This document shows, in pieces, positions 4,391-49,796 of a stretch of DNA of 64,000 nt (within the stretch, counting starts at the first letter, position 1; the number at the start of each line of letters is the position of its first letter). The DNA is from Candidatus Parcubacteria bacterium (lineage in GTDB: Bacteria; Patescibacteriota; Minisyncoccia; UBA6257; HR35). The translations under genes were made by a program, and so were the position numbers. Under the pieces are notes generated by a model. That model saw only the letters and a program-made list of their open reading frames with translations. It ran no database searches and was not told where the DNA came from. The DNA lies in contig BPJI01000002.1 in assembly GCA_026004535.1 (NCBI GenBank), forward strand, positions 688 to 64,687, given 5' to 3'.

Positions 4391-4392
4391 AA

Positions 4393-6555: not shown

Positions 6556-6570
6556 TCAATTTTGTATTGA

Positions 6571-7305: not shown

Positions 7306-7406
7306 AGTTGTAAGTTTTAAAATTAAAATTTGATACTAAATTAAAAATATTTTTTTTATTTTTTGTATTGATTGCCTGTTATATTTTTAGCATATTTATT
7401 ACAAAT

Positions 7407-9533: not shown

Positions 9534-9545
9534 AATTGTAAAATT

Positions 9546-10074: not shown

Positions 10075-10076
10075 AA

Positions 10077-10631
10077 TTAGAGTTTTCTTAAAATAAGTGC
10101 AATAACTAATATTGCCAAAATAATTTTGATGTATTCTAATTGTTTTTTAGTTATTTGAAATGTAACCTTTTCAACGTTTCCTTGATTTGTGTTTTGTTGT
10201 GTGTTTGTGTTTGTGGTGTTTGATATATTTGATGTGGTGTTATTTTGGTCTGATACAGGTGAAAATATGGTTATTTTTACAGTTTGAAAATCTTGTATGT
10301 CTTTCGTTAAATTTGCAGCTAATAACTCTCTTTCGCTTTTAGGATAGTCAATATTGTTGATAAATTCAAATATCTTTTTAGTAACATAATCTGCGTCGTC
10401 TTTAAATTCAATTCCCTTATTGCTTAAAAAATCTTTAAAAATATTCTCTACATACTTTTTATCTTTATCTAATTTGTACTTAATGAAAACTCTTAAATCT
10501 TCCTCTTTTACATTAAATTCAACAAATGTAGGTGGTGCTAATCTTGATGTCTCTGTATCAAGTAAATATGTGTAATTATAATGAGAATAGTCAAGCACAT
10601 TTTCAAGGTCTCTGAATATTACGTCTGCCAT
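10077..10631 (-). CDS. C-tail-anchored membrane protein (184 aa)
   Basis: C-terminal TM segment IILAILVIALILRKL, preceded by an Asn/Thr-rich linker. Confidence 0.5.
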   Translation of the reverse strand: MADVIFRDLENVLDYSHYNYTYLLDTETSRLAPPTFVEFNVKEEDLRVFIKYKLDKDKKYVENIFKDFLSNKGIEFKDDADYVTKKIFEFINNIDYPKSERELLAANLTKDIQDFQTVKITIFSPVSDQNNTTSNISNTTNTNTQQNTNQGNVEKVTFQITKKQLEYIKIILAILVIALILRKL

Positions 10632-10639
10632 AGTTGTAA

Positions 10640-11452: not shown

Positions 11453-11455
11453 AAT

Positions 11456-11995
11456 TTAAAATTTAAAAATTAGTTTTGATATATTGTATGTAAATATTAG
11501 TCCAACGCCAAGTAAAAATAAGTTTAATAATGTTTTTTTGTCAATATAGATATTAATATAAACTACATTCGCATTATTATTAGTGTCCATATAAAACTTT
11601 TCGCTTTTTTCTTTAATATCTTTCAGTATTTCTTCGTCGTGTATATCCAAATATTTAAGATTTTCAAAAGCATCTGATAAAGTATTTTTATTTACATCAT
11701 ATTCCAAGTTATCATTTTCAGTAAAGTCAAAAAATAATGTCCGAAAGTCAGAGTAAATGATTCTTTTTTGCTCTTCGTTAATGACTAAATTATCTAAATC
11801 ATTAACAAAAGATTTTAATAGATTTTTTGAAGTCAATAAGATATTTTTCTGTTTTTCGCCGGCCAAAATATCATCTCTTAACTGCATTAAAGATTTTACA
11901 TAATTGTCAGAAAGAGATTGGGGCAATAAAACAGAGTAATGGATAATGAATTTGTCTAAATTTTTTAAGAATGTCAAGTATTTATCCTTATCCAT
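11456..11995 (-). CDS. C-tail-anchored membrane protein (179 aa)
   Basis: C-terminal TM segment LNLFLLGVGLIFTYNISKLIF. Confidence 0.5.
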   Translation of the reverse strand: MDKDKYLTFLKNLDKFIIHYSVLLPQSLSDNYVKSLMQLRDDILAGEKQKNILLTSKNLLKSFVNDLDNLVINEEQKRIIYSDFRTLFFDFTENDNLEYDVNKNTLSDAFENLKYLDIHDEEILKDIKEKSEKFYMDTNNNANVVYINIYIDKKTLLNLFLLGVGLIFTYNISKLIFKF

Positions 11996-12013
11996 ACTTT
12001 GTTTTTTTAAAAA

Positions 12014-12035
12014 AAGGGCGGTTTTATCCGCCCTT
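12014..12035 (-). terminator. rho-independent terminator hairpin AAGGGCGG-ttttat-CCGCCCTT, flanked by A and T runs so it can act bidirectionally
   Basis: A perfect 8-bp GC-rich stem lying 20 nt downstream of the 12055-12849 gene, followed by a U-run on the minus transcript. Confidence 0.7.
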
Positions 12036-12054
12036 TATGTTGTAAATAAAGAAA

Positions 12055-12849
12055 TTAACGGCTGAATAATCCGCCCAAAATTGAGCGTTTTTCAACGGGT
12101 TGGCTTTCCATAGGTTGGTCGATGGAAGGAGCAGGTGCTTGAATGGTAGCAGCCGATTTAACCATTCCGCCTACTTCAGCAATGGGTCTACCACCAATCA
12201 TAGGAGTCGCAGGCACTGCTGAAGGTTCTAAAGGTCTTACCACAGGGCTTGCACCAAACAATTGATTAGAAGGTACTACTTGATTACCTACGAAGAAATT
12301 GAAGGTAATAGAAGAGTTAGGAGCAATGATACCAACGATGCTTGTTTTTGCATCTACTTTAATTTGCAACGGAACATCAACGATGCTTTGGTTTTGATAA
12401 CGTCCGTCAATGAAAGCAGAAACAGGTATGGAACTTGTGAGAGCCTTGCCTGAAGCATCTTTGGTTACTACTTTCAAAATTTGTTGCAAATTTGTTTGTG
12501 TTTGTGAAACAATACGAACACCTGCAAATACGGTAGGTTGGTTTGCGGTTTGTGTGTAAATTTCGGCATAGGTCAAATCAGGGTCGCCGGTAGTAATCCT
12601 AATTACACCACCGGAGGTTGGTACACCTTGTAGGTTTTGCTCACTCGGGTCGGTGATTTGAAACCTGTTGAAGTTAAATAACACAAATCTACCTTGATTT
12701 GCAGGGTCGGTGTTTGTAACAATAATTGAATAAGGGATAGAAGTCATTGCATACGGCAAAGTCCCTGCGGGAAGGCATCCTGAATCTAAAAGATAGTCAT
12801 GCCCATCCCCCATGTCGTATGCGAATCCAGTTTTTAAATTCCTGTTCAT
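12055..12849 (-). CDS. GC-rich, codon-biased gene for a probable abundant virion structural protein (264 aa)
   Basis: It is markedly GC-richer than its surroundings. The protein is Thr/Ser/Val/Gln/Gly/Pro-rich and beta-rich with no Lys/Asn bias, and its C-terminus is Pro/Ala-rich. It is followed by a strong terminator. Confidence 0.6.
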   Translation of the reverse strand: MNRNLKTGFAYDMGDGHDYLLDSGCLPAGTLPYAMTSIPYSIIVTNTDPANQGRFVLFNFNRFQITDPSEQNLQGVPTSGGVIRITTGDPDLTYAEIYTQTANQPTVFAGVRIVSQTQTNLQQILKVVTKDASGKALTSSIPVSAFIDGRYQNQSIVDVPLQIKVDAKTSIVGIIAPNSSITFNFFVGNQVVPSNQLFGASPVVRPLEPSAVPATPMIGGRPIAEVGGMVKSAATIQAPAPSIDQPMESQPVEKRSILGGLFSR

Positions 12850-12904
12850 AGTTTTAAATTTTTTTGGTTAAACATAATTGTTCATAAAAGAACTGCTTTC
12901 ATAA

Positions 12905-13009
12905 TTAATTGCCTTGTTCTTTGGTTGTGATTTTGAAATAAATCACATTGCCAATTACTACAGCAACTACTGAAAGCAGAAGACCGATTAAAACAGATTT
13001 TGCGTCCAT
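12905..13009 (-). CDS. 34-aa hydrophobic mini-protein (MDAKSVLIGLLLSVVAVVIGNVIYFKITTKEQGN)
   Basis: I translated it by hand; it is below the ORF-track cutoff. It shares the GC-richer codon style of the adjacent gene and has a single TM helix. Confidence 0.3.
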   Translation of the reverse strand: MDAKSVLIGLLLSVVAVVIGNVIYFKITTKEQGN

Positions 13010-13158
13010 AATTAAAAAGTTTTTAAGGTTAATAATTGCAATACAAATTTAGGTAAATTAAATACACAATAAAATTTTTTGCTGCTTTTATTTTTGTAGT
13101 AATATCATTTAGTTTTTAACCTACCGCCATTTTAATTATTAACAATACAAATGTGCTG

Positions 13159-13196
<38 letters not shown>

Positions 13197-13267
13197 CTGA
13201 ATTAACGTTCTAACTAAATATCAACCTACGACTCTTATTAACTAAATAAATTAAATTATAATATAAA

Positions 13268-13291
13268 TATTATTATTATTATTATTATTAT
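13268..13291. repeat. (ATT)8 microsatellite
   Basis: atattattattattattattattatc. Confidence 0.9.
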
Positions 13292-13293
13292 CT

Positions 13294-13510
13294 TGTTAAT
13301 AACTCAAAAAAAATCAAAAATTTTTTTGCTAAACAACTGATAATAAATTATTTAAACGCTAAAAGTTATTAACAATTGCTGTTAATAACTTGTTAATAAG
13401 TGCCATTTTATTGTTAATAACCTGTTAATAATATGTTCATTTTATATTTGTTTCAAAATAAGTAACTTAAATAAAAAAATTATTTTTGTATTATTAAAAT
13501 TGTTAATAAA
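13294..13510. promoter_or_regulatory. iteron array of at least seven copies of the mini-palindrome GTTAaTAAC/GTTAtTAAC; candidate replication origin or multi-operator region
   Basis: Copies at 13294, 13365 (inverted), 13381, 13392, 13412, 13423 and 13501. Two pairs lie 11 bp apart. GTTATTAAC-n7-GTTAATAAC forms an inverted repeat. The array sits at the divergence point of the two strand blocks. Confidence 0.5.
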
Positions 13511-13529
13511 GTTTTCTAAATTTTAAAAT

Positions 13530-13808
13530 ATGGAAAATTCAGAATTAAAAAGGAAAAATTTCTTGATAAAATCTATTCAAGATTATATTCAAGCAATTGA
13601 AAATGAAATAAATGAGAAAAAATTTAAAAGTTATGATGATTTATTGTTAATATACAAAAGGATTGAATACATTGAAGCATATATTTTATTCTCGAACGAT
13701 ATTTTTGATGAAAATAATGAAAGTGATAAAGAGTTAAAAAAAGAATTGATTAATAAATTAAAAAAACTAAATGAAGAGTTGTATAAAAGAATTGAGATTA
13801 ATAAATAA
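13530..13808 (+). CDS. hypothetical coiled-coil protein (92 aa)
   Basis: First ORF of the plus block, rich in charged heptad-like sequence. Confidence 0.45.
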   Translation: MENSELKRKNFLIKSIQDYIQAIENEINEKKFKSYDDLLLIYKRIEYIEAYILFSNDIFDENNESDKELKKELINKLKKLNEELYKRIEINK

Positions 13809-15867: not shown

Positions 15868-18800
15868 ATGCAAGAAGGGAAACTTTTAAAATATAGCAAA
15901 AACGTACTGCTTGATTTATCAGGTAAAGTAAAATTTGCAGAGGACACTCTTATACCTTTTAATCTATCTGCAGAATTGAGCGAGCAAGAAACAAATCTTT
16001 TGTTTGACATATTAAAAGAATTAGAGAAGCATGAAGATATAAACAAAAACAAAAGTTTATACTCTTTATTATTGCAATATCTTGAACTTAAATTAAAGCC
16101 AGACAAAATAGATGATATTGCCGAAAATTTAACAGGGGAGCAATTATACGCAATTGCACTTGGGATAAGAAACTTTGAATCAAATAATCATAGAAAAGGT
16201 GTTATCATAGGTGATACGATGGGATTTGGTAAAACAAGAATAGCAGCGGGCTATGTTCAGTATTTTATTAACAGGCGAAATGCACCATTTTTTGTATGCT
16301 CAAAAGAAGTGTTATTAAGTGAAATAATCAACGAATATATTGAGATTAATAAATCTAAATTTTATGATGCAAATGGTAAATTTGATATTAAGAAAGCAAG
16401 GAAATTCAAATTGCTGCTTTTTAACGAAAGAAAAAATATAGATGTTTTATATAAAAAGGGTAAAGAATATGTATCTGAAACAATTTATAGTTCAGATATA
16501 AATGATTTGAAGAATTTTGTTGAAGATGTTTTAAATGATGAGTTGTTGAGAAAATTTATTTTGTTGTTTAACCTGTTTAACTTTTCCGGGAATAAAAATT
16601 TAAGTAAAGAAATTAAAAATTATAATAAAAATTTGGCAAAATATTACACTGATAAAAATAAAGTTAGAGATTCAAAAAAAGAAGAAGGGCATAAATATTA
16701 CTATTTTAAAATGTTGTTTTCTGTTGGTTATATTTTGCAAGATGATATTAATTTTGTTAAAAATAAAAGATTATTTTATGTTAACAATAAAGAAGAATTG
16801 GTTGATGTATTAGATTATTTGTCAGATATAATTGAAGATTTTGAAAATAAATACAATGAAGCGAAAAAAAGATTTTTTGAGATACTTGTCAATAATGGAT
16901 TTATTGGCATAGGGACAACATATTCTCAATTGAGAACAGATTTTAGTGCAAATGATTTATACATAAATGTTGATTTGTCAAATTTCTATAAAAAAGACAA
17001 TTTTAAAGTCAAATTTAAAAATAAAGACAATAAAACGTTAAAAAGCATATTGTTTAACTTAACAAGTATATTTACTAATGTAATTTATGACGAATCGCAC
17101 AATATCGCAGGTGCAGAAACTATTGGTAAAACTACTACAAACTTTTTGTATCATAATTTCCATCCATATCTGAATTTAATTGCTTTTGAAAGTTTACTTT
17201 ACTCTTTAGATATAAAAAAATATGAGTTAACAAAACCTATATTGCAAGAAAAATTAAAAAACGACGAAAAAAATAGGTTTTCAACTTTAATTGAAGCATT
17301 AAATACCACAAAGTTTATATATGTTTCAATTAGTAAAACATTTACTAATCTGCTTCCTGAAAATGACAATCAAAATGATGATAACAAAAAAGAATTTTTA
17401 TGGTTTTTAAATGATGCTTTGAAAAGTGATTATATATCTTTATCTAATGATTTTATATCGAATAAGTTTAGTGCGTTTATGTCAGCAACTTTTGTTAAAA
17501 ATAATGGTATTATAATGCCTATTTTGTCTTTGTTTACAGATATAGGCACATTCCCAAACAAGATGATGTATTTTATGAGTTTTGATACGAAGATGTTTAA
17601 TAGCGAAAATGCAATATATTTTAAGCAATATCTTCCTAAATATTTAACAAAAAGAGGTTATTATATCAATAGGCAATTTGAATTGGTCACACCGCAATAT
17701 GAACCTATTAATTACATAATAAATAAAAATCAAAAAGAAAATGTAAATGATATTTATAAAAGGTTTATCAATCATTTTAAATTGCTTAAATCCAAAAAAT
17801 ACATAATGGAGAATATTTATTCTTATTTTTTATTAAAAAACGTAATTGATGTTTATAATTTTAAAAATTCAACAGAAGGATATTTTATTGATATTTTTAG
17901 AGAGAATCTTGTTAATGTCAATAGTATTTTAACCTCTGTAAACACAAGCGATTATGGCAATTTCAAAAAATTATTCATAAAAACCATTATTGATATATCC
18001 AATTTTTGCGAGGATATAAGCATTATTGAAAAAGCGTTTGGAAAAAAAATAGATGATAGTATTGTGAATAATGATGTTTTATATGATATGTTAAACAATG
18101 ATAATGAATTTGATTATAAATTAAGATGCACATTTATTATTATTCAATTTGGTGCTATAAAATATGGGTTAAATAATTCAGAGATAAAAATAATTACTTT
18201 AATAGACGATTCGATTTATCAAAACACTTCAGGTTTTAATATTTGGAAGCGAATTGATGAATTAATAGGTGTAAAGGAAGAAGATAACTTTTTCACGAGT
18301 AATGGTTTTCAAATTTTCAAAAAATATAAAGAAGCCAAGGATTTTATATTAGAAACAAAAGGAAACGATATTAATAATGACAATAATGATTCTATATCAT
18401 ACAAAATTAATTTTGAATATACAATAGATGAAATTTTTCAACCTTATACAGAAAAAAGATATGAAAATATTCTAAAATTTTACGAAGACAATAACACGTA
18501 TTTTAATTTATATGCATATGCCAATACAGACCATTTACTTGCTGTAAGACGATTAATTGCCTCAAATATTATTTCAATGTTTACAAAATTTAATTTTGGA
18601 AGGTTTAATAATAGTTTGGTGAAAAATTTCATTACTGCAATAAAAACTGTTGATATAACTCACAAATCTATTGAAATATTAGAAGGAAACAAAAATGAAA
18701 AATTAGATTGGATTCCTAAAAACAACGATGGATATAAGTTAATTGTATCATATGACCATACATTTGATAACTATTCAAAGGTTATATTAAACTCTTATGA

Positions 18801-21800
18801 AGGAAAGAAAGTTAAAAACGATGTAAGATATTTATTTGACGCAATAGAAAAAGATAATAATGTTTTTAAGAATATAGCATATCAAATAAATTTAAACTTT
18901 GTGGTTGACGATTACGAAAAACTATTAAATAAATATAAAGATATAATTTTAGAAAAATATATTGAGTATTCAAAAGATAAACAATTACCAAATGTCGATA
19001 GAGCATTTCAAATAATTGACAAAACATATTCTTCATTATTTACAACCGAAAATGAATTTTCAGGGTTTCCCAATGATAAATTATTTTGTTTAAAAGGGCA
19101 ATACTCTATTTATAAAAACTTGCAATACTTATATCAAGAATATTTAATCAATAAAGATATTGATTATAATATCCCATTTCAGCCCTATGATTATATAAAC
19201 AATACATTAAAAAACTATTTCAGGCAAAAAGGAATTAAATTTAATATGCTTGATGGTACGGGGAGGAGATATAAATTTGAACAAATACAGGGAGACAGCG
19301 AAGGGTATGGATATATTATTAAGACAGGTGAAATTTTGGCAGATAGTGATGAAAGTGAAGACGATATTGACGATATTGATGAAAACGAATCTATATTAAC
19401 AACAAAAGATATTGAAAGTGATGAAGAAATTGAAAGTTCAGAAACAGAAAGTGAAGATGAAAATGTTTATGTTGCTGTTTCAAAAGACGAGAATTACATA
19501 ATTAATTTAAGAGAAAAAATTCATTTGTTTAATAATGATAATCAATACAATTTAATAATAATAAACAGGCGTGCTTCTGAAAGCGTATCCTTACATGCAT
19601 CAGAAAAGTTTAAAGACAGAAGACCGAGAGTAATGATTATTGCAGAAGCAGAATCTAACAGTATCAATGAGATACAAAAACGTGGCCGTATAAATAGAAG
19701 AGGGCAAGTCGCAAAACCTTATTATTACTATCCTTACACAACCATACCTTACGAGAAAAGAATAATTATGATGTTAAAGAAAAAATTGATTCATTTGGAA
19801 GGCGTTACAAAAGGAAATAGAAACCTTTCCGATTTTAGTGAGGAAGAATTAAGAAAATTGCAAGATTTAGAAAATGAAGATGCAAATAAAATATTAGTAG
19901 ATATATTGCAGAAAAAATTAAGCGATTCCAGTTTGCCACTATTTGATTTGCATCTTTCAGATATGCGTGATTTGTTTGCATTGATTCAAGATAATGAAAC
20001 GGGCAGAGATGAAAGACGCTTTAATAATAGGATTGCGAGTGGAAAAGGATTGATAACTAAATTTATGCAAAATTATTATGTGTTTGATTTTGAAACGCAA
20101 GAAACAATACTAAACTCACTTATTGAATCCTATTTTAATATAATAAAAGATGTTGTAGAAGAAAAACCAATAAAAGCAAATATAGAAAGTAGGGATGTAT
20201 TTTATTATTCTAATTACAACAGATATTACGATTACAATAATGAAAATTTAAATAATACATTAATTGAAATACCGGAAATAAAATATTCTTTAACTTATAG
20301 AGAAAAAAATAATAAAATCAATTATGCAAACATTTATATTGACGCAATTAAATATTTGTCTAATGTAGATGAAGATAAAAAAATTATTAATCAATACATT
20401 GCGTTTTTAAAATATGTAACAAAAGAAAATGAAAGTGTGGTGCAAGATGAAGTATTGGCAAATGTTTTGGATGTAGATAGTTTATATGAAGATTTATATT
20501 ACTATCATGAAAAGTTAATGCAGGGGGTTAATATAAATATAAAATATGCGTTTATATTATTAAAAGCATTCAACATATTTGCTTCTTCTTTAAACAAGAA
20601 AACGTACATTAATTTATTGCGTGGCTTCTATTACAAATTATACAAGACACATATTTTAGGTTTATATGAGAAAGTAATTGAAATGTTTTCACAGTTCAAC
20701 CAAAGGCAAAATTTAATAAGCCAGATTGATTATTTTTCTAACTTGCAACTATTCAAGCAAAATGTCGAATTGTTGTTAAATATACCGGAAATAGATAAAT
20801 ATCAAGATGGCGATGAGTATTTTGAGGAACAAATTTCAAAAATTGAAGGTAAATATCACTTAATTAAAGATGAAAATGGTGAAGAATTTAAATTATATGT
20901 TCTTGAAAGTAATGAAGGAGAGTCAAATGTGCCTGTCATAATGCAATTAGATAAGAAAATTGTAGATTTAATTATATATTTATCGGATGTTAACAGGGCA
21001 TATCTATATTACAAAAAGATTGTCGCACATATTTACGAGAGCATGAATAGGGAAGGAAGTGAAATAAGCAAAAATATATCTGATAAATTGAAAAAGGATA
21101 TATTGGATATTATAGTGAATAATAAACATGATTATTACAATAACAATATTGACATACATTTAAGAAAAGTAAAAAATGAAATTTATCACAATGCTCTTTG
21201 CAATGTGCTTGTTAAAAAAATGTATTTACAAGAAGCAAATAAAGTTGAAACGAAAATTTTTAAAGATGGTATATCATTGATTCAAAAAATAAATACAAAC
21301 TTGTATAAAAAATTGTATAAAGCATGGGAAAAAGTTTTCAATAAATTAGATAATGAAAATAATAATATAAATGATGTAATCAGAAAAATGTATTTTGGAA
21401 AAGATATAACTCAAGACGAATATTTAAAATTAGATAAAAAAGAAGTTGCAAAATTTGAGAAATATCAAAGTGAGGTAAAAAAATCATTGATATCGTACAC
21501 AAAATATTTGTTTGATAAAGCGGTTAAACATTATGAAGATAATTTGTTGAAAGATAAAGATGAAAATACAAATGTAAATTTTCACTTATATCAAAAGATA
21601 GATTTAAAAGAGTTGGTTGATTATGTAATTGACTATATGTCAAATAGCGAGTATGTTTTAACTAACGAAATAGTTAATGTTGTAGAGAAAGAAGCGTATA
21701 TTGAGGAGAACTATGATAAATTTGTCAAATTGCCAAAAAATCTTAAAGATTTATACATTAAAGAAATAAGATATGGCAATATAGAAATGCTGATTGATAA

Positions 21801-22440
21801 TATAATGATGAGAAATCCTATTTACACAAGTGTGCATGAGTTTAATAATTTTAGTTTAATGTATCCGGCATTTATGTTTTTAACCACAAACTATAATGAT
21901 ATTAAATTTACTTCAATATTTAATATTATATATAATTTAAAAGGTACAACTGTGTCAGGCAATCCTTCCAATGCAGTAATGTTTATTACAAATATGAAAG
22001 AGCGTCAATTTAAATTAGTGATTGCATTTTTAGATAAAGTTGTTAGTGATAATGAAGTAACAATACTGAAGCAAGATTTTTCTAAAATTTTCTTTGATAT
22101 GCAAAATAAATTAGACATAGATAGTGTTAAAGAATATGATGTTTATTCTAAAGACAAAGAAATAGAAAAAGCTTTGGATGTGTATGAAAAAATTGAAAGC
22201 GAAAACAAAGTGCAGGTTGTAGCAAACAATATATTTTATACATTGAATGACAAGTTTATTGATGCAAACCTAAAAAGCAAAACATTTTTGATTGGTGAAG
22301 GTATATTCAGTCAACCTTTAACAGGAATAATAATTAATGCAACAAGTGAGGGCGGAATAGATGAAGAGACACCTGTGTTAAACATTAATATACCAATTAA
22401 AATTGATAACATTACGGATATAATTAATAATATAAATTAA
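15868..22440 (+). CDS. giant (2190 aa) SNF2/DExH-like superfamily-2 helicase with an insertion of about 850 aa between the two RecA lobes and a C-terminal extension of about 900 aa
   Basis: Motifs at helicase-appropriate positions: motif I GDTMGFGKT (nt 16210-16236), motif Ia FFVCSKEVLLSEI, motif II VIYDESHNIAG (nt about 17089), an SAT-like MSATF, motif V-like NRRASESVSLHA and motif VI QKRGRINRRGQ (nt about 19675). An acidic D/E/S low-complexity linker sits just before the C-terminal lobe. Confidence 0.75.
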   Translation: MQEGKLLKYSKNVLLDLSGKVKFAEDTLIPFNLSAELSEQETNLLFDILKELEKHEDINKNKSLYSLLLQYLELKLKPDKIDDIAENLTGEQLYAIALGIRNFESNNHRKGVIIGDTMGFGKTRIAAGYVQYFINRRNAPFFVCSKEVLLSEIINEYIEINKSKFYDANGKFDIKKARKFKLLLFNERKNIDVLYKKGKEYVSETIYSSDINDLKNFVEDVLNDELLRKFILLFNLFNFSGNKNLSKEIKNYNKNLAKYYTDKNKVRDSKKEEGHKYYYFKMLFSVGYILQDDINFVKNKRLFYVNNKEELVDVLDYLSDIIEDFENKYNEAKKRFFEILVNNGFIGIGTTYSQLRTDFSANDLYINVDLSNFYKKDNFKVKFKNKDNKTLKSILFNLTSIFTNVIYDESHNIAGAETIGKTTTNFLYHNFHPYLNLIAFESLLYSLDIKKYELTKPILQEKLKNDEKNRFSTLIEALNTTKFIYVSISKTFTNLLPENDNQNDDNKKEFLWFLNDALKSDYISLSNDFISNKFSAFMSATFVKNNGIIMPILSLFTDIGTFPNKMMYFMSFDTKMFNSENAIYFKQYLPKYLTKRGYYINRQFELVTPQYEPINYIINKNQKENVNDIYKRFINHFKLLKSKKYIMENIYSYFLLKNVIDVYNFKNSTEGYFIDIFRENLVNVNSILTSVNTSDYGNFKKLFIKTIIDISNFCEDISIIEKAFGKKIDDSIVNNDVLYDMLNNDNEFDYKLRCTFIIIQFGAIKYGLNNSEIKIITLIDDSIYQNTSGFNIWKRIDELIGVKEEDNFFTSNGFQIFKKYKEAKDFILETKGNDINNDNNDSISYKINFEYTIDEIFQPYTEKRYENILKFYEDNNTYFNLYAYANTDHLLAVRRLIASNIISMFTKFNFGRFNNSLVKNFITAIKTVDITHKSIEILEGNKNEKLDWIPKNNDGYKLIVSYDHTFDNYSKVILNSYEGKKVKNDVRYLFDAIEKDNNVFKNIAYQINLNFVVDDYEKLLNKYKDIILEKYIEYSKDKQLPNVDRAFQIIDKTYSSLFTTENEFSGFPNDKLFCLKGQYSIYKNLQYLYQEYLINKDIDYNIPFQPYDYINNTLKNYFRQKGIKFNMLDGTGRRYKFEQIQGDSEGYGYIIKTGEILADSDESEDDIDDIDENESILTTKDIESDEEIESSETESEDENVYVAVSKDENYIINLREKIHLFNNDNQYNLIIINRRASESVSLHASEKFKDRRPRVMIIAEAESNSINEIQKRGRINRRGQVAKPYYYYPYTTIPYEKRIIMMLKKKLIHLEGVTKGNRNLSDFSEEELRKLQDLENEDANKILVDILQKKLSDSSLPLFDLHLSDMRDLFALIQDNETGRDERRFNNRIASGKGLITKFMQNYYVFDFETQETILNSLIESYFNIIKDVVEEKPIKANIESRDVFYYSNYNRYYDYNNENLNNTLIEIPEIKYSLTYREKNNKINYANIYIDAIKYLSNVDEDKKIINQYIAFLKYVTKENESVVQDEVLANVLDVDSLYEDLYYYHEKLMQGVNINIKYAFILLKAFNIFASSLNKKTYINLLRGFYYKLYKTHILGLYEKVIEMFSQFNQRQNLISQIDYFSNLQLFKQNVELLLNIPEIDKYQDGDEYFEEQISKIEGKYHLIKDENGEEFKLYVLESNEGESNVPVIMQLDKKIVDLIIYLSDVNRAYLYYKKIVAHIYESMNREGSEISKNISDKLKKDILDIIVNNKHDYYNNNIDIHLRKVKNEIYHNALCNVLVKKMYLQEANKVETKIFKDGISLIQKINTNLYKKLYKAWEKVFNKLDNENNNINDVIRKMYFGKDITQDEYLKLDKKEVAKFEKYQSEVKKSLISYTKYLFDKAVKHYEDNLLKDKDENTNVNFHLYQKIDLKELVDYVIDYMSNSEYVLTNEIVNVVEKEAYIEENYDKFVKLPKNLKDLYIKEIRYGNIEMLIDNIMMRNPIYTSVHEFNNFSLMYPAFMFLTTNYNDIKFTSIFNIIYNLKGTTVSGNPSNAVMFITNMKERQFKLVIAFLDKVVSDNEVTILKQDFSKIFFDMQNKLDIDSVKEYDVYSKDKEIEKALDVYEKIESENKVQVVANNIFYTLNDKFIDANLKSKTFLIGEGIFSQPLTGIIINATSEGGIDEETPVLNINIPIKIDNITDIINNIN

Positions 22441-22459
22441 ACTTTAAAAACTATAAAAA

Positions 22460-25030
22460 ATGGAAAAAAAACACTTTCTGACATGTTTAGTTCCCAAACA
22501 CAGTGAAATAGAACCTGCGAATCATTGTATCTATATTGGAAAAAATAATAATAACGAACCGCAATTTTTGACTTATTCTTACAATAAAGGCATTATATTG
22601 CCGGAGAAAAAGAATGATAAAGTGATGATTGATACCGAAAGAACAGGATTGTATTTTTCAGAAAAAAATGAGATATTTTTCAAGAAAAATTCAAATATAT
22701 TAATAGAGTTTGGTAATCAAATTTATAATAATAAACACTATTTTAGTACAAGGGGAGAAACAATTGAAAATTTTATTAAGAATTATGATAATGATGATAG
22801 CATGTATTTTTGTTTTACATCATTTCAATTCAATTATATACATGAAGAAAAAAAATATGAATATTTTGATATGTTAAAAAAGATTAATAATGAAAATAGA
22901 GATTTTTTTAATTTATCAGGTATAGTTCATAATACTCATATAGAACCTGATTATAGTTATGATACAATAAATCACCTTAAAACTAAGGAAAATGAATATT
23001 TAACAGACAATGAAATAAAAGAAAATAAATTTATAAAAAACACTTTCTTTTCTTTTATTAAATACGAAAAAACGCAAGAATTTTTAAAAACATTGTTGAA
23101 AAAAGATTTTCTTTACAATAATTTGAGAGAACCAAGAGGAATAAAAGATGCTTTATTTGAATTTAATTATAAAAATATTAAAAACTTTTCAAATAATGAA
23201 AAGCAATTATTTAAAACATATTTTTATAATACAAGATATATTTATGTATATGTAAAAATCGTGCATTTCGACAATGAAAAAAATAATAGATTATATAAAG
23301 TAATTTACTTACCGCTTTCAGATGTAATTTTATTTACTTACTATTATTATTGTTATTTTAATTATGAAACGAACCTTATTAATGAAACTAAATATAATTG
23401 GAAAGATTATTTTTTGGAAAGAATTACAAATTTTTATAAAGTCATAATAAGTGATGACGATATTGTAAAACATTTTGATATTAATGTTAATTTGGAAGGT
23501 AAGTTTGATATATTGAAGGAATTAGAGTCGAAATTCATGAATAAAATTTTTGTAGATGCACGTATATTGTTTGATAATTATCATGGAGATAAAAAAATAA
23601 TAATAGATTTTGCAGATAAAATAATAAATTCTTTATACAACAATAAAGTAATGGTTGTTATTGATAAATACCTGGAGAATAAATATGTAAGTATGGTTAA
23701 TTTTGATTTGAAAAAAATAAATATAAACGAAGTTTTAAATTTCATTAAAAATAATTTAGAATACGCAGATGATTATGATGTTATTGATTTATATGTAAAA
23801 AGAGATATAAGAGTAATGGATGTAAGAGATCATATACACTATTTAGTACATGAACCATTTGAAATAAATAATTTAATTATATCTTACAATGAAATTTCAT
23901 ATTTAACAAATAACTTTAAGGACAATGAATTTGTAATAACATTTAACGGATACGTATTAAGTCATAAGAGCAGCAATATTAAATTACTATTACAAAAAAA
24001 CAAAAAACAAGATGATTTAATTGAAGATATTGCAGAAATAAAAGGCGAAGAATTGGAACAATATATTAAGTCGCAGGTATTGACAAAACCGGTAATGTAC
24101 AAAATCAATAAAGCAGAAGGTGTAAAGAAAATAAATGTTAGTAATTTAATTAGTTTAATAAGACACGATGAAAAAAATATTTACGCATTAAAAAACATCA
24201 AAAAAATCTTATATGATGATAATGGCGATATAGAATCTTTTGAAAGTAAATTATTATTGACAGATACAGTTTTTTCAGATTACTTAATTTACTGCAATTA
24301 TGAGAGTGTTACAGAGTTAATTGAAATAATTGCAAACGCACCGTATAAAGATTGGAAAAAGAAATTCTCGGATAAAATAACAAATTATGAAACTTTCTTC
24401 CTTGATAGTGCAAATTACAAAGACATAACTGCGACTATAAATGATTTGGATAAAAATTATTTATCAAGTACATTAAACGTTTACGGAGAGTATTTGAAAA
24501 GTTCAACTGATATAATAAACAATGACTTTATAAATAATTTTGTCAAAGAATTAGAAAAGAAATATCAAAATCAACTTGCAAGGGAACTTTCGTTACATAT
24601 TACATTGCCATATTTTTATGTATTAAGTTTACTAAAAGCAAACAATAAAAAATTATTTACAGTCGATAAAGAAAGTTTGGCGCTGAAAAAGATTATTAAT
24701 CATATTTTTCTAATGTCAGAAGAGTGGATAGTGTCAAAAATGACGCAAAACAATCTTAATGTCAGATTGTTAAATAGCGATACGATAAATAATGTGGCGA
24801 AAATGTATTTGTTTAGGTTGATGATTAATAATAACTATTTTGTCAACATGGACATATTCTCTATGTTTATAAATAGCAACAAATTATTAGAATTGGATAA
24901 GTACAATGATTACATTAAATCACAATTGGCCTCAACAATATCTGAAATGTATAAAGAAAATTTCATTGACATTGAAAAAGAGCAGTTATTATTAAGTAAA
25001 CTAAAAACGTTTGAGCAATTGAAGATATAA
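22460..25030 (+). CDS. hypothetical large protein (856 aa) immediately downstream of the helicase
   Basis: A long uninterrupted ORF with no recognisable motif. Confidence 0.6.
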   Translation: MEKKHFLTCLVPKHSEIEPANHCIYIGKNNNNEPQFLTYSYNKGIILPEKKNDKVMIDTERTGLYFSEKNEIFFKKNSNILIEFGNQIYNNKHYFSTRGETIENFIKNYDNDDSMYFCFTSFQFNYIHEEKKYEYFDMLKKINNENRDFFNLSGIVHNTHIEPDYSYDTINHLKTKENEYLTDNEIKENKFIKNTFFSFIKYEKTQEFLKTLLKKDFLYNNLREPRGIKDALFEFNYKNIKNFSNNEKQLFKTYFYNTRYIYVYVKIVHFDNEKNNRLYKVIYLPLSDVILFTYYYYCYFNYETNLINETKYNWKDYFLERITNFYKVIISDDDIVKHFDINVNLEGKFDILKELESKFMNKIFVDARILFDNYHGDKKIIIDFADKIINSLYNNKVMVVIDKYLENKYVSMVNFDLKKININEVLNFIKNNLEYADDYDVIDLYVKRDIRVMDVRDHIHYLVHEPFEINNLIISYNEISYLTNNFKDNEFVITFNGYVLSHKSSNIKLLLQKNKKQDDLIEDIAEIKGEELEQYIKSQVLTKPVMYKINKAEGVKKINVSNLISLIRHDEKNIYALKNIKKILYDDNGDIESFESKLLLTDTVFSDYLIYCNYESVTELIEIIANAPYKDWKKKFSDKITNYETFFLDSANYKDITATINDLDKNYLSSTLNVYGEYLKSSTDIINNDFINNFVKELEKKYQNQLARELSLHITLPYFYVLSLLKANNKKLFTVDKESLALKKIINHIFLMSEEWIVSKMTQNNLNVRLLNSDTINNVAKMYLFRLMINNNYFVNMDIFSMFINSNKLLELDKYNDYIKSQLASTISEMYKENFIDIEKEQLLLSKLKTFEQLKI

Positions 25031-25040
25031 ATAATGCAAC

Positions 25041-25271
25041 ATGAACGATGCGAATGATATAAAATTGGAAGAAATGGAAAAATCCCAGTGGGGGAGAATA
25101 TATTCTATATTTATTGTAAGTAATTCTTTAATATTGTTGTTTTTATTAGGGAATAGAAAATTGACAAATTTTGAAAGAATATATCTGATATCTGTTGGAT
25201 TGTTAACTTTTATTACTTGCTACATTGCTTATGAAAATAACAAAAAATACTACAGTTTGGAATTGATATAA
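25041..25271 (+). CDS. small 2-TM membrane protein (76 aa), paralogue of the next gene
   Basis: It has an MND start and two hydrophobic helices. The next ORF has the same layout. Confidence 0.45.
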   Translation: MNDANDIKLEEMEKSQWGRIYSIFIVSNSLILLFLLGNRKLTNFERIYLISVGLLTFITCYIAYENNKKYYSLELI

Positions 25272-25281
25272 ATTGTGAATA

Positions 25282-25524
25282 ATGAACGATTATGCAGAAA
25301 ATAGAAAGCGTGATTTGGAAGAGTTTAAAATTTCGCAAGGTATAAGGTTGTTTGACCTTTTGGTATTTTCGCCAATTTTAATTTATATCGGCATACGTGG
25401 AAAGGTAAACGATGTTTCAAGAGTGGCTTTATTAGTTCTTGCTTTGGTGAGTATCATTTATAATGCTTATTATTATGAGATAACAAATATAAATAGTGAA
25501 AAAAATAATAATTTAAAAAAATAA
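25282..25524 (+). CDS. small 2-TM membrane protein (80 aa), paralogue of the previous gene
   Basis: It has an MND start and two TM helices. Confidence 0.45.
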   Translation: MNDYAENRKRDLEEFKISQGIRLFDLLVFSPILIYIGIRGKVNDVSRVALLVLALVSIIYNAYYYEITNINSEKNNNLKK

Positions 25525-25622
25525 TTATTTAAAAAAATGATAAAATAAAAATGGATGAAAAATTATTATTTTGACATGAAACACAAATTTTTACAATAAT
25601 AAATACAATAAAAATATATTTT

Positions 25623-26576
25623 ATGAAAAATATTTATTTAGAATACGCAAAATTAATAACAGAAAATGTAAAAAGCGAAAATATTCACATCAATACATTT
25701 GTTTTAAGTTTTTTAAGCAATTCAAATAGAGACGAATTTGATGATTTTAATGTTTTAGGAGAAAAACCTCCGTCAAATCTTCTGACCGAAAAATTTTTAA
25801 ATACTATTAATTCAAGTAAATATAGAGAAGGTTTATTGCTTCTTTTTATAAAGAGATTTTATTCTGTATCAAAAGAAATATCATTTAATTGGCAAACATT
25901 ATTCCCGGAACAACCAATATTTGATTCTTTGGATACCGTAAACAAAATAGACAAAATATTGAAAGATATAAAATATAAGCTGACATTTAAAGATATTTTG
26001 CACATCTTATCGGAAGGAAAAAAAATGAGTTTTGCAGAATTTGATTATTTGATGACTAATTTAAGAATTTCTGCATTTGCTCACGAATTTGAAGAATATG
26101 GATTACTAAATTTAATTGATAAGCAATTATTGTATAAGCAGACAAAGACATATTATGACAGAATATTGGACAAAAATGTAGTTCAAGAAATTGAAGAAGT
26201 CGTTGAATTGTATGATTTTAGTTTACCTGCAGCATATAATTTCTTTTTTAAAGGCGATGCGGAATCTATTTTTACATTACAAGGTGAAGAAGGGAATGCA
26301 CGTTTTATTAAAGTTTATGATTATGCAACGGATAAAAGTGTTTATATGGAAGTTGACCCACATACAACAAATGCTATTGATGGTTTGGTTTCATTGTATA
26401 GCATACCGGTAGGTTCGGAAGATTATATTGATTATATAGGAAGGCAAGGTGATGTGATATTTATATCATTTAAAGAAACTAAAGAAGCATTAGAGTTTAT
26501 GAAAAAAGCGGTTGATTTACCAAGAAGAAAAATAACTTATGAAGAGTATAAAAAGTGGATAAAATACGAATCATAA
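25623..26576 (+). CDS. hypothetical protein (317 aa)
   Basis: A long ORF. The internal ORF at 26191-26412 is spurious. Confidence 0.55.
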   Translation: MKNIYLEYAKLITENVKSENIHINTFVLSFLSNSNRDEFDDFNVLGEKPPSNLLTEKFLNTINSSKYREGLLLLFIKRFYSVSKEISFNWQTLFPEQPIFDSLDTVNKIDKILKDIKYKLTFKDILHILSEGKKMSFAEFDYLMTNLRISAFAHEFEEYGLLNLIDKQLLYKQTKTYYDRILDKNVVQEIEEVVELYDFSLPAAYNFFFKGDAESIFTLQGEEGNARFIKVYDYATDKSVYMEVDPHTTNAIDGLVSLYSIPVGSEDYIDYIGRQGDVIFISFKETKEALEFMKKAVDLPRRKITYEEYKKWIKYES

Positions 26577-26599: not shown

Positions 26600-27454
26600 A
26601 TGTATCAAGATTATTTATTAAGAAAAAACAGAGACCATATTATTTATGTTGTGGCCGGAAGAAAAGGTATTGGAAAAACATATTTGTCCGAGCAATTGGT
26701 AAAAAGATATGCCCAAATACATAATAAGAAAGTTTTGATATTTGCTGCCGAAGGTAAAGATTGGTCTTTTGCAAATACAATAAGCAAGAATCAAGTAGGT
26801 AGATTTATAGGTGAAGAATATGATTTCCCGGAAATACTTGCTATAAGAGACAATGAATTTGTTGATTTGGAAGAAAAAGAGGAGGTTTTTAAGGAAGTTG
26901 TTTATAGGTTTAGAAATGGATTATTGGTAGCCGAAGACCTTAACAAGTATCTAATTGGCACAGGTTCAAAAAAAATTATTGCATCTATTGTTGCAAATAG
27001 ACAAAAAAATGCAGACATTCTTTTACATTTTCAATCATTGGCAGCAGTAACGCCAAGAATTTTTCAAAATGCCTATATTTTTAGGTTGCATAAGCAAGTA
27101 GATGATATTTCACGATATAGCAGCAGGATACCGGAATATAAATTGTTTTATATTGCAAAAGATATTGTGGATAATGCCTATAAAAGAGGTGATAAAAGAA
27201 GATATGTTTATGTTAATTTGTTTAATTACAAAATTGAAGGTCAATATAAAATTTCAGAATTTGTTGAATCGGCAATAAATTATTTGACACATAAAAAGGG
27301 CATATTATCCGAATATGAATCGAAACTTTCTGCAAGAATTATGAGTTCGGGGAAAAAATTGAAAAAAAGAATAACAAAAAGCGAAATAAAAAATTTGTCA
27401 TTGAAAGAAGCAACAAAAGATTTGTTTATGCATTCAAAATATCACATAAATTAA
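26600..27454 (+). CDS. P-loop NTPase (284 aa)
   Basis: It carries a Walker A motif, VVAGRKGIGKTYLSE, near the N-terminus and a candidate Walker B (LLVAEDLNKY). Confidence 0.55.
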   Translation: MYQDYLLRKNRDHIIYVVAGRKGIGKTYLSEQLVKRYAQIHNKKVLIFAAEGKDWSFANTISKNQVGRFIGEEYDFPEILAIRDNEFVDLEEKEEVFKEVVYRFRNGLLVAEDLNKYLIGTGSKKIIASIVANRQKNADILLHFQSLAAVTPRIFQNAYIFRLHKQVDDISRYSSRIPEYKLFYIAKDIVDNAYKRGDKRRYVYVNLFNYKIEGQYKISEFVESAINYLTHKKGILSEYESKLSARIMSSGKKLKKRITKSEIKNLSLKEATKDLFMHSKYHIN

Positions 27455-28491: not shown

Positions 28492-29091
28492 ATGAATATA
28501 TCGGAAAGGATAATATACAGAGACCTTCTTAAAAAAGAAGACATCTATTATGAAGATGGGTTTGTTGAATTTAATGATAAATTAAACGAGTTAAATTATG
28601 ATGATAGGAAGGTTTTGTCATTAGGTGAAATAAGCAGCAGAAATTATGGACAAGATATAAAATGTATTTTCAAAGATATTTTATATGAATATAATAGTTT
28701 ACTTGAAAATCTAAAAAGCGAAGAGGCGTTTTATATTTTTGGGCTTTACTATAATTATGAGTTAGACAAATTTATATTTTTTAATGTGCCGAAAGAAGGA
28801 GTTGTAAATTACGAAATAGATGCTGTGAGAGAAAGAGGTTTGTCTGTATTTGTTAATATTGAATATTACAAAAATAAGATAATAAAATATATTGATAGTC
28901 ATAATGAATTAAGAAATCATTATTTGACCTTTAATGGCGAAATTGACGAAAGTGATAACCGTACCATTTTTTGCGACAATTTATTTGTCATCAAACCTGA
29001 ATTTTATTCTTATGATAATGTTTATAGGGAATTTATTAAAATAAGCGAAGGGATGATAAAAGTTCTTGACGTTAAATATTTATATGAATGA
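28492..29091 (+). CDS. hypothetical protein (199 aa)
   Basis: An ORF overlapped by 4 nt by the next gene. Confidence 0.5.
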   Translation: MNISERIIYRDLLKKEDIYYEDGFVEFNDKLNELNYDDRKVLSLGEISSRNYGQDIKCIFKDILYEYNSLLENLKSEEAFYIFGLYYNYELDKFIFFNVPKEGVVNYEIDAVRERGLSVFVNIEYYKNKIIKYIDSHNELRNHYLTFNGEIDESDNRTIFCDNLFVIKPEFYSYDNVYREFIKISEGMIKVLDVKYLYE

Positions 29092-29969
29092 TAGTAAATA
29101 AAGGCATAATAGTTCATGATCCGGATTTTGTAGATTATTACTATAATGAAGCGAGTAATTATTACTTGAACACAGAGGGCATAATAGACGTTCATGGAAA
29201 AAATGTGCTTATATTTTATTTACCAAGAATAAATAATACGTTTTTAATACGATTAGTTTGCCCGGAGACAGGCGACATAATAGCGGAAAGAGAAGTTAAT
29301 CCAATGCAGCGAAACAGAGTAATGTTTCATTTGCCAAATTATGAGAAAGCAATCATAATGCAGGGCTATAAAAAGGGAGATAAATACGATAAAAAGAACA
29401 TCTATTATAGTTTACACGAAGTAGATAAGGCGATTCTCTTAAAAGAAGAAGATTGGGAGTTTTACGAATTTGTATTTCCAATTGTCAGGTATTTGAAAGA
29501 TTATGAAATTGGCACTTATCTAAAAAGTGAAAAAGGTACATATAGTATAAAAATATCCGATTATATTTATCAAAACAACAAACCTATACTTGCCAATGCG
29601 GGCGTAAACGTCCACACGGGGGAATTTATCATATCAAAAATAAATATGTTAAATAAATTTACCTGTCATGAGCGTTTTGCAATTATGTGCCATGAGTACG
29701 GTCATTTTTACGGAAATGATAAATTAAATATACATAGGAGCAATGAGATTGGAGCAGATTTATACGGAATGAAACTATTTATGGATTTGAAATTTCATCC
29801 TTACGACTATATTGCTGCGTTTGAGAAGGTGTATAGTATTGTTCCATCTAAAACTAACAAATTAAGATTAGAAACAATATACAAATTTGCATATCAGTAC
29901 TATAAAGATATTAAGAAAAGGGAAGTATATGCTAAAATAAGATACAAGCAATTGCCTGAAAAAAAATAG
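29088..29969 (+). CDS. putative zinc metallopeptidase (HExxH)
   Basis: FAIMCHEYGHFYGNDK contains an HEYGH zinc-binding motif in a protein of appropriate size (293 aa). Confidence 0.4.
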   Translation: MIVNKGIIVHDPDFVDYYYNEASNYYLNTEGIIDVHGKNVLIFYLPRINNTFLIRLVCPETGDIIAEREVNPMQRNRVMFHLPNYEKAIIMQGYKKGDKYDKKNIYYSLHEVDKAILLKEEDWEFYEFVFPIVRYLKDYEIGTYLKSEKGTYSIKISDYIYQNNKPILANAGVNVHTGEFIISKINMLNKFTCHERFAIMCHEYGHFYGNDKLNIHRSNEIGADLYGMKLFMDLKFHPYDYIAAFEKVYSIVPSKTNKLRLETIYKFAYQYYKDIKKREVYAKIRYKQLPEKK

Positions 29970-48239: not shown

Positions 48240-49796
48240 ATGGTGATAGAAGCATCACATAAAAAATTAAACGGGGTTGTTTACACACCTCAATGGATAG
48301 TGGAATTAATTTTAGATTATTTGAACTATCAAAAAAATATTGAAACAAAAAGAATAATTGACCCTGCTTGTGGCGATGGAGCTTTTTTAGAAATTATAGT
48401 GGATAGATTTATTAAAAGTGCCCTTAAAAATAATTTATCTACCATTAAAATTAAAGAATTATTAGAGCAAAATATTTATGGATGGGATATTGATAAAAAA
48501 GCATTGAAATTTTGTAAGATTAAATTAGATAATGTTGCTCATCAATATGATATAAAAAACATCAATTGGAATTTAACTAATGTAGATAGCTTAAATAAAG
48601 AATTTGCCAAGAAATACTTTAATTTTTTTGATTTTGTTGTTGGGAATCCACCATATATCAGAATTCAGAATATTGAAAAAGACAAACGAAAAAATATACA
48701 AGAAAGTTGGATTTTGTGTAAGAAAGGTTCTACAGATATATTTTTGGCTTTTTTTGAATTAGGAGTTTACTTATTAAATACAGAAGGGTTATTAGGTTAC
48801 ATTACTCCAAATACTTATTTAAAAACTTCTGCAGGAAAGGATTTAAGAATTTTCATAAAAAACAAATTAAAAACATTAATCAACTTTAATCATTATCAGG
48901 TTTTTGAAAATGCAACCACTTACTCTTTAATTACAATTCTGTCAAAAAAAAATAATGAAAACAAATTTTCTTTATACGAAGGAAATGATAAGAAAAAAAT
49001 AAAATTTGTTGATGTAATTGAAACAGAGAATATTAATAATAACAACTGGATTTTGGCTTCTAATAAAATACTAAAAAGAATAAAAGCAATAGAAAGCAGA
49101 GGAATTCCTTTAAAAGAAATTGCTAATATACATGTAGGTATTACCACACTTGCTGATGATTATTATATATTTGAAAACCCTGTTTTTCAACAAGATACAG
49201 CAATAATATATGTTGATAATGAATACTTTGAAATAGAAAATAATATTTTGAAACCTATTGTAAAAGCATCCATTTTAAAGCATTCTAACGAAGAACAAAA
49301 TAGGTATATTATTTTTCCATACAAACTAAATCATAATAAACATCAAATAATTCCTGAAGAAGAACTTAAAAAGGAATATCCATTGACATATCATTATTTT
49401 ACAAAAATAAAAGACAAACTATTATCAAGAGACGGTGGAAATGAAAATACAGTTGCATGGTATGCATTTGGAAGATCACAAGGGCTTGATACATCATTTG
49501 GTAAAAAGATACTAACATCTCCAATGAATTTAAAACCCAATTTTATACTATGGGAAAAACCTGAATATACTTTCTATTCCGGTTATTGTATAAAATATGA
49601 TGGAGACCTTTACGAATTGCTTAAAGAGTTAAATTCTGATGATATGGACTTTTATATAAAATATGTTAGCAGAGATTATAAAAACAATTATAAATCCTAT
49701 TCTAAAACATTTATTGAAAATTTCGGCATTGATAATCCAAAAATTATTGAAGAATATAAAAGAAAAAAACACTCCTTATTTGATTTTCAGTATTAA
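48240..49796 (+). CDS. gamma-class N6-adenine DNA methyltransferase (518 aa)
   Basis: The motif order is X, I, IV: VVYTPQWIV, IIDPACGDGAFLE (AdoMet binding) and VVGNPPYIRIQ (NPPY catalytic). A long C-terminal target-recognition region follows. Confidence 0.8.
   Translation: MVIEASHKKLNGVVYTPQWIVELILDYLNYQKNIETKRIIDPACGDGAFLEIIVDRFIKSALKNNLSTIKIKELLEQNIYGWDIDKKALKFCKIKLDNVAHQYDIKNINWNLTNVDSLNKEFAKKYFNFFDFVVGNPPYIRIQNIEKDKRKNIQESWILCKKGSTDIFLAFFELGVYLLNTEGLLGYITPNTYLKTSAGKDLRIFIKNKLKTLINFNHYQVFENATTYSLITILSKKNNENKFSLYEGNDKKKIKFVDVIETENINNNNWILASNKILKRIKAIESRGIPLKEIANIHVGITTLADDYYIFENPVFQQDTAIIYVDNEYFEIENNILKPIVKASILKHSNEEQNRYIIFPYKLNHNKHQIIPEEELKKEYPLTYHYFTKIKDKLLSRDGGNENTVAWYAFGRSQGLDTSFGKKILTSPMNLKPNFILWEKPEYTFYSGYCIKYDGDLYELLKELNSDDMDFYIKYVSRDYKNNYKSYSKTFIENFGIDNPKIIEEYKRKKHSLFDFQY

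Follow-up and report, generated by a model that had tools for sequence, protein, structure and literature searches.

An open reading frame (ORF) of 2190 amino acids (aa), referred to here as the giant ORF, was analysed together with its surroundings in a stretch of 64,000 nucleotides of contig BPJI01000002.1 (assembly GCA_026004535.1), the window. From its sequence, the product is securely placed in the Strawberry-notch (Sbno)-like branch of the SWI2/SNF2-related superfamily 2 (SF2) ATPases, although the original prediction made for this DNA had found it impossible to place in a named family. The giant protein is a very divergent, enlarged and methylase-less relative of ATPases known from mobile elements, and it represents no new architecture and no new system. 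ATPases of the Sbno type are common in phages, in plasmids and in integrated elements. This protein shows the reach of the family, with about 70% of its sequence unrecognisable and no methylase nearby.

Sbno-like core and layout of the giant protein

The secure assignment rests on a Pfam match, on a domain pair shared by the homologues, on collinear profile matches and on the annotation of plasmid homologues. Helicase_C_4 (PF13871, 'C-terminal domain on Strawberry notch homologue') matches aa 1207-1429 with 63.4 bits against a gathering threshold of 30.5, and AAA_34 (PF13872) matches the N-terminal lobe with 24.2 bits, just under its threshold of 27; ResIII also matches that lobe. The pair PF13871 and PF13872 is carried by all 13 non-self matches of the giant protein, identified in a search of 5.8 billion clusters. 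A profile of 13 sequences was built from the Sbno modules of these database homologues and a second one, of 75 sequences, from genomic relatives, and the whole protein matched them with E values of 3.6e-51 and 1.8e-47, respectively. The 13-sequence profile is collinear with the protein at aa 71-232, 348-423, 536-642 and 1094-1427. The first lobe was matched at aa 71-232 by this profile (E 2e-21), at aa 69-422 by the 75-sequence profile (E 5e-16) and by BLASTP to one relative (P0003, E 2e-12). Finally, plasmid homologues carry the NCBI annotation of strawberry notch proteins. The segments and motifs of the giant protein are the following:

16072..17136 (+): RecA-like lobe 1, aa 69-423, holding motifs I, Ia and II
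16210-16236 (+): motif I, GDTMGFGKT, aa 115, with the Walker A lysine K121
16288-16326 (+): motif Ia, aa 141
17080-17112 (+): motif II, VIYDESHNIAG, aa 405-415, with DESH at aa 408-411
17473..17490 (+): motif III, FMSATF, aa 536-541 (SAT at aa 539), aligning with LSATFAK of the family
17794..19146 (+): inter-lobe region, aa 643-1093, without detectable homologue
19147..20154 (+): RecA-like lobe 2, aa 1094-1429 (E 3.9e-36 with the 13-sequence profile, 3.1e-41 with the 75-sequence profile)
19303-19461 (+): acidic Ser/Asp/Glu insertion, aa 1146-1198, inside lobe 2
19675-19707 (+): motif VI, QKRGRINRRGQ, aa 1270, within lobe 2
20155..22437 (+): C-terminal 761 aa, orphan, predicted to be mostly helical

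Both the ORFs and the motifs of a helicase originally read from this DNA are real and stand where they had been placed, with 862 aa between motifs II and VI (roughly 850 had been estimated) and 910 aa past motif VI (roughly 900). Motifs I, II (DESH), III (SAT) and VI (Q.RGR..R.GQ) are present and collinear with the family and motif Ia is also intact, in agreement with the proposed SF2 helicase-like ATPase related to SNF2. The acidic run, taken before for a linker just ahead of lobe 2, sits inside that lobe, past its first conserved element, PFQPYDYI (aa ~1100), at a site that is variable across the family.

The order of parts is that usual in Sbno proteins: an N-terminal leader, lobe 1, a helical inter-lobe region, lobe 2 and a long C-terminal region. 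The family profile comprises 1376 positions, where lobe 1 ends at ~257, lobe 2 occupies 577-777 and ~600 positions come afterwards; the four corresponding segments of the giant protein have 354, 786, 221 and 761 residues, in the same order. A wide separation of the lobes and a long tail after motif VI are thus usual for Sbno proteins, expanded here ~1.5-fold, and the split architecture is not the unusual feature it had seemed. Motifs Ia and II are separated by a lineage-specific insertion of ~166 aa, and where the giant protein has the inter-lobe region of aa 643-1093 the family holds ~145-320 residues. The Sbno ORFs of 73 genomic relatives have 889-1837 aa (mode 1419, typically ~1260-1420), those of 1562-1837 aa being methylase fusions, and the giant protein is the longest 'helicase-only' version among the relatives surveyed. 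This size, called unusual before for a phage replication module, is not exceptional for a phage, since proteins of 3300-6000 aa with the same module are common on viral contigs.

The giant ORF (24.8% GC) and the gene directly downstream of it, which encodes an orphan partner of 856 aa (22.8%), form the lowest-GC stretch of the window (27.6%). The lengthened and unrecognisable non-catalytic segments fit AT-biased drift in this most AT-rich part. The probability of a stop in this composition is ~0.10 per codon, that is, one stop expected per ~10 codons, and the chance of a stop-free run of 2190 codons is ~1e-101. The identical protein of 2190 aa is encoded in an independent Logan assembly of the same sequencing run.

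Outside the helicase core the protein is an orphan. When aa 1078-2190 were compared exhaustively with 1.84 billion representatives by phmmer, 1452 matches were obtained, all of them within ~aa 1120-1480, and the only sequence below 1e-30 was the giant protein itself. The inter-lobe insert and the C-terminal 761 aa (~600 in the family) were recognised neither by the 13- and 75-sequence profiles nor by hhalign, and the inter-lobe region had no Pfam match; in the family, the conserved C-terminal module after the helicase includes the SnoC winged-helix (PMC5512222). Single-sequence AlphaFold2 models of aa 1430-2190 and of the partner had a mean predicted local distance difference test (pLDDT) score of 32.1 and 33.0, respectively, and both are unusable. 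The resemblance of GIIINATSEGG at the C-terminus to GHVINATVAGG of the relatives had no profile support and was treated as chance, and nothing in Pfam supported an intein or a homing endonuclease inserted between the two lobes. No match to DnaB, primase or Toprim domains was found in the giant ORF with Pfam or PHROGs, so the fused replicative helicase-primase that the original prediction had named as a refutation finds no support, and Pfam identified no other polyvalent-protein domain in it. The giant protein, the Sbno profile and the neighbouring ORFs had no match in a sequence search of the PDB. Among 50,697 phage records searched by tblastn with the giant protein, only Bacteroides phage BS-TP4 matched, and marginally. 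For the giant ORF, the partner, RecT, the CCA-adding enzyme and the downstream ATPase of the window, scans of IMG/VR yielded no close relatives.

Methylase dyads, operon and orphan partner

The lobe-2 alignment identified 473 relatives in a scan of GTDB genomes, and the neighbours were clustered for the best 80. Among these 80, almost all belong to Bacteroidota and none is labelled as Candidate Phyla Radiation. An N6-adenine methylase (NPPF motif; Pfam N6_Mtase/Eco57I) was identified in 58 of the 61 genomic loci with enough upstream sequence, directly upstream on the same strand in 44 and fused to the Sbno ORF in 8. The AAA_5 ATPase gene stands directly after Sbno in 48 genomic loci, and proteins with RepL-like and DnaA_C-like helix-turn-helix (HTH) domains are frequent, the Flavobacteriia loci presenting RepL-like, DnaA_C-like and AAA_5 genes.

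This Sbno subgroup was also found on 115 viral contigs of IMG/VR, many of 60-76 kb and so comparable to the 69-kb source contig, mostly within polyvalent proteins of 3300-6000 aa. Of the 70 viral loci in which an ORF was detected with the Sbno profile, 64 have the methylase either fused (53) or close by. One viral contig (L111, 69,028 bp) closely mirrors the arrangement of the window: a methylase of 1673 aa is followed by Sbno (1936 aa) and, 4.4 kb downstream, by a P-loop ATPase of the family found downstream of the giant ORF (cluster 19). For annotation, the N6-adenine methylase, fused or adjacent in >90% of the relatives, and the P-loop ATPase of ~300 aa, which 16 genomic loci and one viral contig carry a few kb downstream, can serve as guides. 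The genes of the window that bear on this comparison are:

15868..22440 (+): giant ORF, 2190 aa, Strawberry-notch-like SF2 ATPase (Pfam, custom profiles)
22460..25030 (+): partner ORF, 856 aa, orphan, starting 19 nt past the giant ORF
25041..25271 (+): small membrane protein 1, 76 aa, with a homologue on contig L088 (E 2e-20)
25282..25524 (+): small membrane protein 2, 80 aa, two transmembrane (TM) segments, with a homologue on L088 (E 5e-15), weakly related to protein 1
25623..26576 (+): 317-aa ORF, adjoining small protein 2 here and in L088 (L088 E 1.7e-16)
26600..27454 (+): P-loop ATPase, 284 aa, conserved Sbno neighbour (cluster-19 profile E 1.5e-42)
48240..49796 (+): Eco57I-type N6-adenine DNA methylase (Eco57I E 7e-27), 26 kb from the giant ORF

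The giant gene, the partner and the two small membrane protein genes are packed in an operon-like block (15868-25524, forward strand) in which 19, 10 and 10 nt separate successive genes. Near this operon, a promoter-like site was identified only past 25524 (near-consensus, 25571-25600), ahead of the 317-aa ORF. The partner occupies the slot directly downstream, where the relatives usually carry the AAA_5 ATPase. It had been called unannotatable, and no family was found for it: it matched only itself among 5.8e9 clusters, has no relative in IMG/VR, gave no match in Pfam, PHROGs or PADLOC, and was not matched by the profiles of 36 neighbour families (clusters of at least 6 members) from Bacteroidota Sbno loci. 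Against all ORFs of the window these 36 profiles matched only the downstream ATPase, a GH108 muramidase and an M15 peptidase. No paralogy between the giant ORF and the partner, no internal repeats and no paralogue of the partner in the window were found. The giant ORF, its partner and the three ORFs upstream have neither the [DNS]PP[YFW] motif nor a methylase match in Pfam.

Compared with the prokaryotic Sbno-like ATPases, represented by WP_338399628.1 of the Persicobacter plasmid pPP10 and the ~1419-aa proteins of Flavobacteriia, the giant protein shares the two-lobe core, motifs I, Ia, II, III and VI and the segment order, and its locus shares the P-loop ATPase a few kb downstream. It differs in its size (2190 aa against a mode of 1419), in inter-lobe and C-terminal modules that are not recognisably homologous and in an altered motif V, whereas its locus lacks the adjacent methylase and, directly downstream, has the orphan 856-aa gene instead of AAA_5. 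The archetype of the methylase-helicase dyad of polyvalent proteins is DarB of phage P1 (Iyer et al. 2017, PMC5512222); like it, the giant protein is a SWI2/SNF2-clade ATPase on a mobile element, but it has no methylase domain (by motif and Pfam) or other polyvalent-protein domains. The gp3 protein of BS-TP4 (5391 aa) and the IMG/VR ORFs of 3300-6000 aa belong to the same Sbno subgroup, with its EVQKRGRIN signature, on viral genomes of 60-76 kb; these proteins are much larger and are methylase fusions (53 of 70 loci), and their likeness to the giant protein is confined to the helicase core. The eukaryotic SBNO1 and SBNO2 have the same pair of Pfam domains, but they are transcription co-regulators in animals and share no context with the giant gene; the Strawberry notch genes of eukaryotes are regarded as descendants of SWI2/SNF2 ATPases that belonged to selfish elements of prokaryotes (PMC3417536).

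Proposed role and its alternatives

By analogy with its relatives, the giant ATPase is, on balance, probably an Sbno-type translocase of double-stranded DNA (dsDNA) that helps a phage-like mobile element of low GC to become established or to counter restriction. It would use ATP to translocate along dsDNA without unwinding it, and would most likely act on the DNA of the element itself at entry or establishment. In the relatives, translocation appears to be coupled to an N6-adenine methylase that would shield incoming DNA from restriction, the mechanism proposed for the P1 DarB-type dyad being ATP-driven tracking along the incoming DNA coupled to protective adenine methylation (PMC5512222). Since no methylase is fused or adjacent here, the giant ATPase might work with a methylase elsewhere on the element, with the orphan partner, or alone. 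Among the functions originally guessed, a remodeller-type anti-defence protein is the most plausible, by analogy with these dyads (PMC5512222), whereas a DNA-ejection motor and a novel helicase-based system found no support.

Several observations weigh against this role. The role is assigned by analogy, as PMC5512222 and PMC3417536 describe no biochemically characterised bacterial protein of Sbno type. Motif V of the giant protein is ASESV where the family has SGSTG, conserved at 90% or more in the subgroup alignment (the region reads RRASESVSLHAS here and NxSGSTGxSxHA in the relatives), and a few further family-conserved positions also differ, so full activity is not guaranteed. No methylase of the Sbno-linked type was found within 10 kb of the giant ORF, and the best match of the window to the profile of these methylases, the Eco57I-type gene at 48240-49796, is weak (E 0.001). 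Roughly 70% of the giant protein, and all of the partner, cannot be interpreted and may contain an activity of another kind. Finally, PHROGs and Pfam, applied to ~55 ORFs of the window, identified none as a capsid, portal, terminase, tail or type IV secretion gene, and with no capsid, portal or terminase gene behind it the label of phage is an indirect one.

It is unlikely that the giant protein is packaged in the virion and injected as a polyvalent, DarB-type protein, perhaps together with the partner and the small membrane proteins, to act immediately on entry. DarB is a head component (PMC5512222), the Sbno subgroup on viral contigs occurs mostly in polyvalent proteins of the largest sizes given above (3300-6000 aa) and the Sbno-containing gp3 of BS-TP4 (5391 aa) lies directly upstream of the portal gene; however, the surroundings of the giant ORF contain no recognisable packaging gene (portal, capsid, MuF or other), no further polyvalent-protein domains were found in the ORF, and the Flavobacteriia relatives, standing among RepL-like, DnaA_C-like and AAA_5 genes, resemble an establishment or replication module and not a head module. 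A replication or recombination helicase of the element is quite improbable, for the Sbno/SWI2-SNF2 clade comprises duplex translocases and not unwinding helicases (PMC5512222), no primase, DnaB or polymerase match was found in or beside the giant ORF, and YqaJ and RecT lie 38 kb away. The vicinity of RepL-like and DnaA_C-like HTH genes in the relatives, a DnaB gene ~4 kb upstream of the shared ATPase on L088 and the weak DnaB_C-type P-loop similarity of the downstream ATPase would favour such a helicase. The phage replication module in which the original prediction had set the ORFs found no support either, as none of the genes beside the four of them could be recognised as one for replication, capsid, portal or terminase.

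A tight operon with a large helicase, an unannotated partner and small TM proteins would also suit a system of defence or competition between elements, in which the helicase would be sensor or motor, the partner the effector and the small membrane proteins effectors of abortive infection. SNF2-like helicases are present in some defence systems. Such a system is nevertheless as improbable as the replication helicase: no PADLOC model of a known defence system matches any of the four proteins; the small TM proteins and the 317-aa ORF occur on L088, in whose available sequence no giant or partner gene is seen, which makes them backbone genes and not part of a helicase cassette; and nearly all the relatives are methylase dyads of mobile elements. 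Very improbable is a decaying or functionally relaxed gene, where the expansions and the altered motif V would reflect constraint lost together with the methylase partner. The low GC of the giant and partner genes relative to the window, the divergent motif V and the lack of a nearby methylase agree with decay, but the ORF is unbroken over 6.6 kb where a stop is expected every ~10 codons, motifs I, II, III and VI are intact and the independent assembly of the same run encodes an identical ORF.

There is also a slight chance that the partner and the ~1500 orphan residues of the giant ATPase replace the usual methylase of the dyad by a different activity; a phage-like element, living in a low-GC host that has been little studied, would then turn an Sbno-type translocase against host defences in an unprecedented way. 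Unless the orphan regions or the partner carry a new activity, the giant protein is of modest interest, being a recognisable family member and not a new system.

Downstream genes, contig L088 and the wider element

The link between Sbno genes and the downstream P-loop ATPase is conserved. Cluster 19 comprises P-loop ATPases of ~308 aa located ~6 kb downstream of Sbno in 16 genomic loci, nearly all from Bacteroidota, and the ATPase of the window lies 4.2 kb downstream of the giant ORF. The latter shows weak HerA/DUF87, DnaB_C and terminase-like P-loop matches and a weak PADLOC match to mad8 (1.3e-4), and its closest homologue (P0164, 48% identity) is on contig L088. The family was also identified on L088 and on a TARA scaffold (L090), the loci being L008, L010, L016, L031, L038, L088, L090 and L111. 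The 293-aa ORF at 29088-29969, with a weak M48/zincin-like match (E 0.0012), is kept together with the ATPase on L088 (E 6e-45) and on the TARA scaffold (E 4e-12). In the phage records tblastn found no match for the 708-aa ORF, the ATPase, the 293-aa ORF or a representative of the ATPase family, and in the plasmid collection none for that representative.

L088 is a Logan contig of 20 kb from another sample (SRR27730024), with 27.6% GC, of which 16.3 kb were available for comparison, and it represents a distantly related element. It contains homologues of at least 11 genes of the window in a different order: those of the two small membrane proteins, the ATPase, the Eco57I-type methylase of 48240-49796, which is kept next to the ATPase (E 1.6e-113), the ORFs of 317 aa, 293 aa and 708 aa (the last at 7407-9533), and the ORFs at 10640-11452, 12055-12849 and 35147-35542. 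These shared genes apparently define the backbone of an undescribed element family. No giant or partner gene was seen in the 16.3 kb, and the small membrane proteins, kept there without them, would be backbone genes and not accessories of the helicase; conservation of the gene set 15868-25524 in related elements, another matter raised by the original prediction, was therefore not observed.

The paralogy claimed for the two small membrane proteins is weakly supported. Their global alignment has a z of 6.9 against shuffles and of 3.65 against topology-preserving shuffles, and the ORF at 25282-25524 matches both small proteins of L088 (E 5e-15 and a cross-match of 7e-5), so a distant relationship may stand, but BLASTP between the two saw no alignment.

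Among the genes of the window that point to a mobile element are YqaJ and RecT, three DNA methylases that are orphans, wall hydrolases of the M15, M23 and GH108 families, a CCA-adding enzyme of phage type and a pair with weak likeness to ArdA; most of the other ORFs match nothing. A phage is the best guess for the element, resting on viral contigs of similar size and arrangement. The label of the host is uncertain. The contig is filed by NCBI under a metagenome-assembled genome (MAG) of Candidatus Parcubacteria, but the Shine-Dalgarno motif was present at none of the gene starts examined, it is in Bacteroidota that Sbno, ATPase, GH108 and M15 have their closest relatives, an ORF with a CarboxypepD_reg domain extends over the start of the window, and positions 58625-63549 are 98.3% identical to a contig of another MAG assembly (GCA_026003415.1).

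The three peptidoglycan hydrolases, an M15 peptidase, an M23 peptidase and a GH108 muramidase, are encoded at 34173-34715, 39307-39831 and 45027-45758 (reverse strand), and GH108 and M15 are also adjacent Sbno neighbours in Saprospiraceae loci. The CCA-adding enzyme, a tRNA nucleotidyltransferase with an HD domain, is at 51078-52436 (phrog_2244, E 2.8e-64); tRNA and Rfam scans of the 64-kb window found nothing. The adjacent ORFs at 53049-53543 and 53561-54130 are paralogous (37% identity over 123 aa), the former with an ArdA antirestriction match that is below the cut-off (E 0.004). Two small ORFs, at 50887-51069 (+) and 57036-57221 (-), share 79% protein identity in inverted orientation and flank the CCA-adding enzyme and the ArdA-like pair; the enclosed segment (51-57 kb) may be an invertible or mobile cassette. 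On the opposite strand, locus L006 also has a match of 90.5% to 57213-57328.

The reverse-strand block 321-12849 comprises ORFs with a single N- or C-terminal hydrophobic segment each and no family match, those at 9766-11995 all with C-terminal anchors. Between this block and the forward-strand block of the giant ORF lies a divergent intergenic region (12850-13530), located ~3 kb downstream of a sign change of the GC skew (~10 kb). Its features are 35 consecutive T (13162-13196), an (ATT)n tract and, within 13136-13509, 8 copies of TGTTAATAA, a word with 11 copies in the whole window against 4.4 expected, a count that none of 100 shuffles reached. The region looks like an operator or iteron cluster.

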